This document shows positions 34,108-58,974 of a stretch of 64,000 bases of DNA, in pieces. Within the stretch, counting starts at the first letter, position 1; every line of letters starts with the position of its first letter. The notes beneath the pieces were generated by a model. The model had not been told where the DNA came from and made no database searches. It was given only the letters and a program-made list of their open reading frames with translations. The position numbers were made by a program, and so were the translations under genes. The stretch is from positions 30,256,001-30,320,000 of the forward strand of contig OX597834.1 of the NCBI GenBank assembly GCA_951406725.2, in the 5' to 3' direction. The DNA is from Octopus vulgaris. Lineage: Eukaryota.

Positions 34108-34217
34108 CCTATCTAAGTTGATACTTGTTCTATAATCCCAACACTGTTGGCTACAGGGTTTCCAGGGGGTCTGTCCAACATGCTGGTTATCTAGTTTCAT
34201 CACAGCCATAACATCAT
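34108..34217 (-). CDS. PKN: PKN exon, C2 domain (NDVMAVMKLDNQHVGQTPWKPCSQQCWDYRTSINLDR)
   Basis: 110 nt, acceptor atttcag, donor gtaaag, phase 1 to 0; not in the ORF track, found by reading the minus strand; KLDN..VGQT.WKP...Q.WD motif. Confidence 0.95.
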
Positions 34218-36472: not shown

Positions 36473-36898
36473 TATGAAGATAAATTATTCAGAAATAAGT
36501 TTTTGCTTAATAAATCCCGAGAGGATATAAAAGTGCAATCAACAGATATGGGGAAGATACAGATTGAAACACCCAACAACAGTATCTAAAGAACCAGTGA
36601 GAAAATTAACATAAAAGATTTTAACATGCCAGCAAATATTTAACAATTTTTTTTAAATAAAGAAAGAAAAAAATTTCAACAGGAAATTCAAATTAAATAT
36701 GTAAATATTATGGTATTTCCAAACTTTTAAATTAAAAAATAAATAGAATGAAATAAAATAAAATAGCAAATAAAAATAAATAAATATAATTATGTATTAA
36801 TTAATGTCTTATTGGTTAAAATGGGCAAAACAGAATACCGAAAATATACATGATAAATATAACAAAATAGACAATATATGTATACCTATGTATGTGTA

Positions 36899-45846: not shown

Positions 45847-45850
45847 GAAG
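45847..45850 (-). CDS. Candidate 4-nt microexon CTTC
   Basis: Minus strand reads ttctttttgtctttcttcccacctctgatag|CTTC|gtaagt; no AG on the minus strand for about 217 nt upstream (45853-46069). Confidence 0.5.
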
Positions 45851-46142
45851 CTATCAGAGGTGGGAAGAAAGACAAAAAGAAAAATAACCAAAAAAAGGTC
45901 ATACCAATAATGGATATTAATAAATATGGAATGCAGAGAGGTAAGGGAGAGGAAAAAAAAGAAATCAAACAAATTGAGATTTGAAAAATTGAAACAAACA
46001 GTCAAGAACACATGTAAGATGGTTTTTTTTTTTGAAATCGTTAATTTTTAAATATATATTTTTTTTTGGCTCTCGGGGTGTGTAGAAACAGCAACAGTTT
46101 GGTCGCTGACGCAACCAGTTAAAAAGTTGCTTTTTCACATAC

Positions 46143-46175
46143 CATTGTCAACACAACACTCTGTGGGTGCACCAC
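46143..46175 (-). CDS. Candidate 33-nt exon; phase-1 frame GGAPTECCVDN, or ends exactly in acaATG in phase 0
   Basis: Strong acceptor ccctgctttcaatttcag and donor atg|gtatgt. Confidence 0.6.
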
Positions 46176-46496
46176 CTGAAATTGAAAGCAGGGTGCAGTG
46201 AGTTATCAAGGAGAAGATCAAACTTGCTTTTTTTTTTTTTTTTTTTTTTTTTGGTATTTTGCGAATAAATATCCCGACCGCGACAGTCAGTCAGTCAAAG
46301 AGAGACATACAGACAGACAGACAAACAAACACTATTTCAAACACATTTAAAACAGCGTGTGAAACAACATCAATAAGAAGAAAAAGAAGAAAAAAAAACT
46401 TTAATAATGGCAAGAAGACAATTAGCTCTGTTAAACAATTTGTCAAGTATATTTTAATTAATTTTTTTCATTCACACAAGAGATACTATTAGTTGA

Positions 46497-58807: not shown

Positions 58808-58974
58808 TTGACAAATTTTCATCTTTTATACTATACGTTTTACTATTGCTTTTGCCTGTCTTGCCACCACGTAAGAGACTACGACTCTCACCTGGGCTGG
58901 AAAACATAAGCTGTAAAGAATCTCTTCTCGTACGTCCAGGAATATCTTCCAGAAGGTCCTGACATCCAACCAGT
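58808..58974 (-). CDS. PKN: PKN exon, C2 strand 1 end and long loop (LVGCQDLLEDIPGR...KDENLS)
   Basis: 167 nt, acceptor ttactttgtag, donor gtgagt, phase 2 to 1. Confidence 0.95.

Follow-up and report, generated by a model that had tools for sequence, protein, structure and literature searches.

A candidate 4-nt frame-shifting microexon among the cassette exons of the octopus PKN2 C2 loop

Results

The host gene and its cassette exons

The window, a stretch of 64,000 nucleotides of the Octopus vulgaris genome (contig OX597834.1, positions 30,256,001 to 30,320,000), carries part of the PKN2 gene on its minus strand (Table 1). It was found that a C2 exon of the window is 98-100% identical to octopus PKN2 proteins. 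A Pfam scan detected three copies of PF02185 (HR1) together with PF00069 (kinase) and PF00433 (PKC C-terminal domain) in all four proteins scanned, and the closest PDB match of the host protein is a PKN2 kinase chain (4crs). HR1 and the C2-like domain are regulatory inputs of PKN, according to the accessible part of a study of these kinases (PMC6408329). Mapping on 264 kb of the octopus genome G000 placed the HR1 exons from about 129,400 (in window coordinates, beyond the window itself) down to 59,642.

Table 1. Features of the PKN2 C2-loop region, in window coordinates and in the order of transcription
Feature	Positions	Strand	Basis or remark
Exon, end of HR1c and start of native C2 strand 1	59862-59642	minus	protein mapping
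Exon, end of native C2 strand 1 and loop	58974-58808	minus	alternative donor after 58892
81-nt phase-1 cassette exon	49070-48990	minus	8/23 annotated octopus proteins
33-nt phase-1 cassette exon (GAPTECCVDN)	46175-46143	minus	10/23 annotated octopus PKN2 proteins
AG-free U-rich zone (46069-45853) and acceptor AG (45852-45851)	46069..45851	minus	sequence
Candidate 4-nt microexon CTTC	45850-45847	minus	sequence
Donor gtaagt (full consensus)	45846-45841	minus	score 2.5, own-gene matrix
45-nt phase-1 cassette exon, peptide like C2 strand 1	41437-41393	minus	13/23 annotated proteins; contigs of 4/4 runs
Next constitutive exon, C2 strand 2 onward	34217-34108	minus	mapping and contigs

In the annotation, the exons of 81, 33, and 45 nt are in-frame cassettes inside full-length PKN2. 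In all 13 annotated proteins that have the 33-nt or the 45-nt exon, the HR1 region and the strand-1 exon lie upstream, and in the 10 proteins with the 33-nt exon the Cys-Cys pair is found at residues 263-456. Thus, the long Cys-Cys N-terminus of a preliminary description of this DNA corresponds to the entire HR1 region of an ordinary full-length kinase. An S-acylated N-terminus was ruled out, since the pair is internal. The same description had a protein start right at C2 strand 1. The peptide concerned, FKLAYQGCQ, turned out to be a look-alike within the loop between strand 1 and strand 2, and the native strand 1 (TLEVRLVGCQ) lies 13 kb upstream, split over two exons.

Chiton PKN proteins (P0028, P0154, and P0155) have alternative inserts of 5 and 7 residues at the same exon junction, and P0029 apparently has a similar short insert there. 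Thus, the C2-loop intron looks like a recurrent microexon site.

The CTTC site

As printed on the minus strand, the context of the candidate is ctctgatag/CTTC/gtaagt. The AG-free zone before CTTC is 217 nt long, the preceding AG being at 46071-46070, and the corresponding zones of the 20 constitutive acceptors of the gene are 18-190 nt long. Pyrimidines occupy 16 of the 20 bases from -23 to -4 of the acceptor. The preliminary description had reported tag/CTTC/gtaagt after a long pyrimidine tract and about 217 nt with no AG, as well as a 33-nt exon ending in acaATG 292 nt before CTTC; both observations are borne out by the sequence, on the minus strand. Upstream of CTTC there is no CUAAY branch point (CTAAY in the DNA), only weaker YTRAY matches at -7, -70, -118, -155, and -194, and the last 40 nt before the acceptor contain no TGC (UGC). 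Both neighbours do have a UGC near the acceptor, at -15 and -22 for the 33-nt exon and at -9 for the 45-nt exon.

On a matrix made from the 19 donors of this gene (leave-one-out range -4.5 to 11.9), the CTTC donor scores only 2.5 because the exonic TTC precedes gtaagt. The CTTC acceptor scores 1.9 on the own-gene matrix, and the real acceptors of the 33-nt and 45-nt exons score 3.1 and 2.1. Both CTTC values are near the bottom among the real sites of the gene. The CTTC stretch is single-copy in the octopus genome under a search that skips repeats, and an exact scan of metagenome contigs gave no match.

Tandem TGAC repeats and several CpGs were found at 46255-46330 of the minus strand, 115-123 nt above the 33-nt exon. 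This stretch adjoins a 25-nt A run and is a possible branch-point or regulatory element.

Comparison with chance

I counted the sites of the form AG+N(1-15)+GTRAG on both strands of the 264 kb. Among the 502 sites found, the one at CTTC has the longest AG-free zone, and the runner-up has 136 nt. The 264 kb contain 52 AG-free zones of at least 200 nt, and the base rate of a GTRAG-type donor is 1.7%; under this loose null, about 0.9 zones with such a donor are expected versus one observed. A stricter filter (a YAG outside repeats, a pyrimidine content of 75% or more, and a zone of at least 150 nt), which was chosen after the site had been seen, passes six sites in the 264 kb. One of them is a real acceptor, and one is the CTTC site, the single one inside the window. 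For each of the six, the chance of a GTRAGT within 27 nt is 0.8%. These counts are suggestive, not decisive, in placing the splice-like layout at CTTC moderately beyond chance, and it seems somewhat more probable than not that CTTC works as a splice unit.

Acceptor-like sites were also seen elsewhere in the PKN2 introns, at window position 36585 (minus strand; AG-free zone of 136 nt) and at G000:C21:30331419 (minus strand; 232 nt), with no strong donor close by.

Predicted effect of CTTC on the reading frame

Splicing onward from the two upstream donors gave 32 computed paths. All 16 full-length paths with CTTC stop within two codons, and all 16 paths without CTTC stay open. The TAA reached upon inclusion is at 41433-41431, inside the 45-nt exon; ten or more exons separate it from the last junction, and it is more than 55 nt above that junction. 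Therefore, CTTC in a full-length mRNA would be a poison exon.

The translations given in the preliminary description hold. With CTTC the exon-final ATG starts an open frame (MLPFKL...), and the long one terminates in NASF and a stop; without CTTC the ATG gives MLLS and a stop. The arithmetic of the proposed frame switch is thus correct. The switch does not exchange a short N-terminus for a long, S-acylated one, because the long frame is that of full-length PKN2, where CTTC gives a premature stop. The exon-final ATG, which has an A at -3, is in frame with the kinase only if CTTC is included, and this counts only for a transcript beginning inside this intron. Re-initiation is unlikely after a long ORF. 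It was accordingly considered unlikely at this ATG in the full-length mRNA, where 11 nt separate the ATG from the stop below it and the long ORF comes before.

RNA and protein evidence

The RNA material consisted of assembled contigs that carry no tissue labels, from 24 runs presumed to be RNA or of unspecified type. Four of these runs, from four studies, were compared with the 45-nt exon. Contigs drop minor forms, so these are data on presence, not on absence. In contigs of all four runs the 45-nt exon is joined to the constitutive exon starting at 34217. The joining of the alternative donor at 58892 to the 45-nt exon appears as a loose end in runs X3, X8, and X17, and X14 has a contig that shares this 27-letter shape. 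In one of the four runs, X3, a contig joins the 33-nt exon directly to the 45-nt exon, with CTTC skipped. These junctions show that the cassettes are real and occur in full-length-type transcripts.

Among the contig rows listed for the four runs, which lose minor forms, none has CTTC before the 45-nt exon. A rough depth balance, which assumes 31-letter words, gave 104 upstream versus 103 in run X3, with no unexplained upstream source. In run X17, about 40% of the depth of the 45-nt exon comes from upstream paths absent from the contigs, and CTTC inclusion could thus be hidden there. Runs X3 and X17 carry congener alleles.

The predicted new start, LPFKLAY, occurs in none of the 349 stored proteins, and no contig or protein with CTTC inclusion was found among the contig rows listed for the four runs and these 349 proteins. 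A protein search covering at least 15 of the 17 members of the main octopus cluster returned eight candidates of 575-1833 residues, none of them new, and no protein below 575 residues sharing the search words. Counts of CpG, Inr, and TATA upstream gave no clear promoter. The O. bimaculoides model P0136 (598 residues) begins with MAVMK despite an in-frame Met in the upstream exon; it may come from a short, a frame-shifted, or merely a partial transcript. On octopus PKN splicing, a search by title and abstract, largely of papers outside subscription, found no publication, and the searched portion of a preprint that covers octopus splicing (bioRxiv 10.64898/2026.09.05.749416) has no mention of PKN.

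A peptide resembling C2 strand 1

The peptide of the 45-nt exon resembles the native strand 1. The likeness was first noticed by eye and then scored against six strand-1 variants. FKLAYQGCQ ranks second of the 956 nine-mers in P0124, behind strand 1 itself, and 23 of 20,000 shuffles reach its score. An insert of 15 residues, TLRLVYYGCQAPKQE, occupies the corresponding position in the Logan protein P0138, and the counterpart LRLVYYGCQ in it ranks second of 991 nine-mers (83 of 20,000 shuffles reach the score). The P0138 cluster has long identical stretches in common with the Sepia pharaonis record P0010, and P0138 is therefore called cuttlefish-like here. Both inserts are hydrophobic at -6, -4, and -2 before GCQ, like the native strand 1. 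Alignment A2 was left out, as it scattered the insert.

A strand-1-like insert was seen only in octopus and in the one cuttlefish-like protein. None was found in the other mollusc clusters read, and by eye and motif count no second strand-1 motif was found in the 58 of 135 new representatives with a readable strand 2. The AlphaFold model of the full-length protein uses the native strand 1 and gives the insert low confidence, an outcome that the alignment favours. When the C2 domain was predicted as starting with the 45-nt peptide, a strand was placed at residues 2-5, with a pLDDT of about 30 there and 50 overall, and this low-confidence model has no fold match at E <=0.001. The mimic may swap strands in full-length PKN, or it may serve a short isoform. 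It deserves attention whatever CTTC proves to be.

Discussion

The reading that I prefer, with a rough probability of 0.4, is that CTTC is a real, rarely seen, frame-shifting poison microexon in the cassette-rich C2-loop intron of PKN2. Under some form of regulation, CTTC would be spliced into the full-length PKN2 message, and translation would then stop within two codons. The stopped mRNA would likely undergo nonsense-mediated decay or else yield a short HR1-only protein. In favour of this reading, the AG-free zone is the longest of 502, and no other long zone of the window passes the strict acceptor filter. The site is single-copy, its intron contains three annotated cassettes and corresponds to the place of the chiton inserts, the contig junctions are of the full-length type, and the stop is far above the last junction. 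The lack of CTTC in the listed contigs and in the proteins, the loose null of 0.9, the absence of a UGC, and the weak site scores speak against it, the real acceptors of the 33-nt and 45-nt exons being equally weak. It also leaves the in-frame ATG with its A at -3 and the strand-1 mimic as coincidence. If CTTC is a poison microexon, it would be an unannotated off-switch for a Rho-effector kinase in a lineage with little-described microexons.

CTTC may instead be unspliced, a chance AG-N4-GTAAGT that ends a U-rich intronic stretch, and this is a serious possibility to which I give less than even odds. The U-rich stretch may then be a splicing element of the 33-nt exon. The loose null, in which nearly one such site is expected, the weak scores, and the lack of a UGC are as this explanation would have them, and so is the direct joining of the 33-nt exon to the 45-nt exon in the X3 contig and in 10 of the 23 annotated proteins. 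It has to account for a perfect gtaagt in an intron that is already cassette-rich, and for the single strict acceptor of the window having a GTRAGT within 27 nt, at a chance below 1% under thresholds set post hoc. Aligners commonly miss 4-nt exons. The absence of CTTC from the annotation is therefore weak evidence. It is very unlikely that gtaagt serves as an alternative donor of the 33-nt exon, making a 329-nt exon, or of an exon from another upstream AG. The donor does have the full consensus, and reading on from the 33-nt exon gives ...DNGM and a stop; the extension meets an in-frame TGA at once and would thus also be a poison form. This explanation leaves unaccounted for an AG-free zone and pyrimidine tract that end exactly 4 nt before the donor.

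The in-frame ATG would find a use if a transcript from an internal promoter contained CTTC between the 33-nt and 45-nt exons. The product would be a C2-plus-kinase PKN of about 615 residues that lacks HR1, with the 45-nt peptide replacing strand 1. The ATG, with an A at -3, opens a frame only when CTTC is included; CTTC gives a start two codons before the spare strand 1 that an HR1-less isoform would need, and the mimic ranks second among the nine-mers of both P0124 and P0138. The fly pkn gene, in the part of the report available, has four predicted starts, three of which encode the Rho-binding part and one of which does not (PMC4059237). The start of P0136 at MAVMK hints at short or frame-shifted transcripts, but this may be a plain 5'-partial model. 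None of the 349 proteins has the new start, none of those found is shorter than 575 residues, and no clear promoter signal was seen; the contig junctions place the 45-nt exon in full-length-type transcripts, and HR1 lies upstream in 13 of 13 annotated cassette-bearing proteins. The full-length fold, from an alignment biased that way, uses the native strand 1 with the insert at low confidence. I thus regard this start switch as unlikely. The same holds for what it would amount to, namely a Rho-independent, nPKC-like octopus PKN made through a 4-nt microexon, with its first beta-strand from a coleoid-specific duplicate exon, which I consider improbable. Were it true, a single splicing step would take away the Rho-binding module and bring in a spare beta-strand. 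Since the same splice would start the C2-kinase and silence the full-length form, one event would switch the architecture of the kinase.

How does the preferred poison microexon compare with known systems? The neural microexon of Bak1 is reportedly a small non-triplet exon whose inclusion leads to a downstream stop far above the last junction. Many non-triplet poison cassette exons coupled to nonsense-mediated decay are on record in the accessible text of one survey (PMC13247117). CTTC is like those described there in being a small non-triplet exon whose inclusion brings a stop far above the last junction. It is unlike them, as far as that text goes, in its size of 4 nt, in its host, a Rho-effector kinase, and in putting an upstream ATG in frame (PMC13247117). 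In contrast to those cassettes, both the inclusion and the decay of the octopus form are predicted from the DNA.

Microexons of this size are spliced in human genes. In the available sections of one study, MPC1 and TNNI1 have constitutive 4-nt microexons that preserve the frame upon inclusion, and the five human coding microexons of 4 to 7 nt tested are constitutive and not poison (PMC9929638), which counts against the poison reading. CTTC shares the size of the MPC1 and TNNI1 microexons, whereas skipping is the default in octopus. The same sections describe SEPT7 microexons that give alternative start codons at the second exon (PMC9929638). Like these, CTTC would affect a start codon, since its inclusion brings an ATG into the frame of the main product; the octopus site is mid-gene. 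A UGC near the 3' splice site marks eMIC targets, according to the accessible portion of another study (PMC8797185). Compared with the eMIC/SRRM4 neural microexons of that portion, CTTC has a similarly long AG-exclusion zone, a weak 3' site, and a tract with 16 pyrimidines in 20 bases, and differs in having no UGC near the acceptor, in having only weaker YTRAY matches and no CUAAY, and in not preserving the frame (PMC8797185).

The octopus host resembles the PKN2/PRK2 family in having three HR1 repeats, a C2-like domain, and an AGC kinase. Unlike the family, it has an alternative donor in the C2 loop, as well as the additional cassettes of 81, 33, and 45 nt. Use of this donor, at 58892, drops 28 basic loop residues. 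It is joined to the 45-nt exon in contigs of the four runs, so that the strand-1 mimic takes the place of the basic loop segment.
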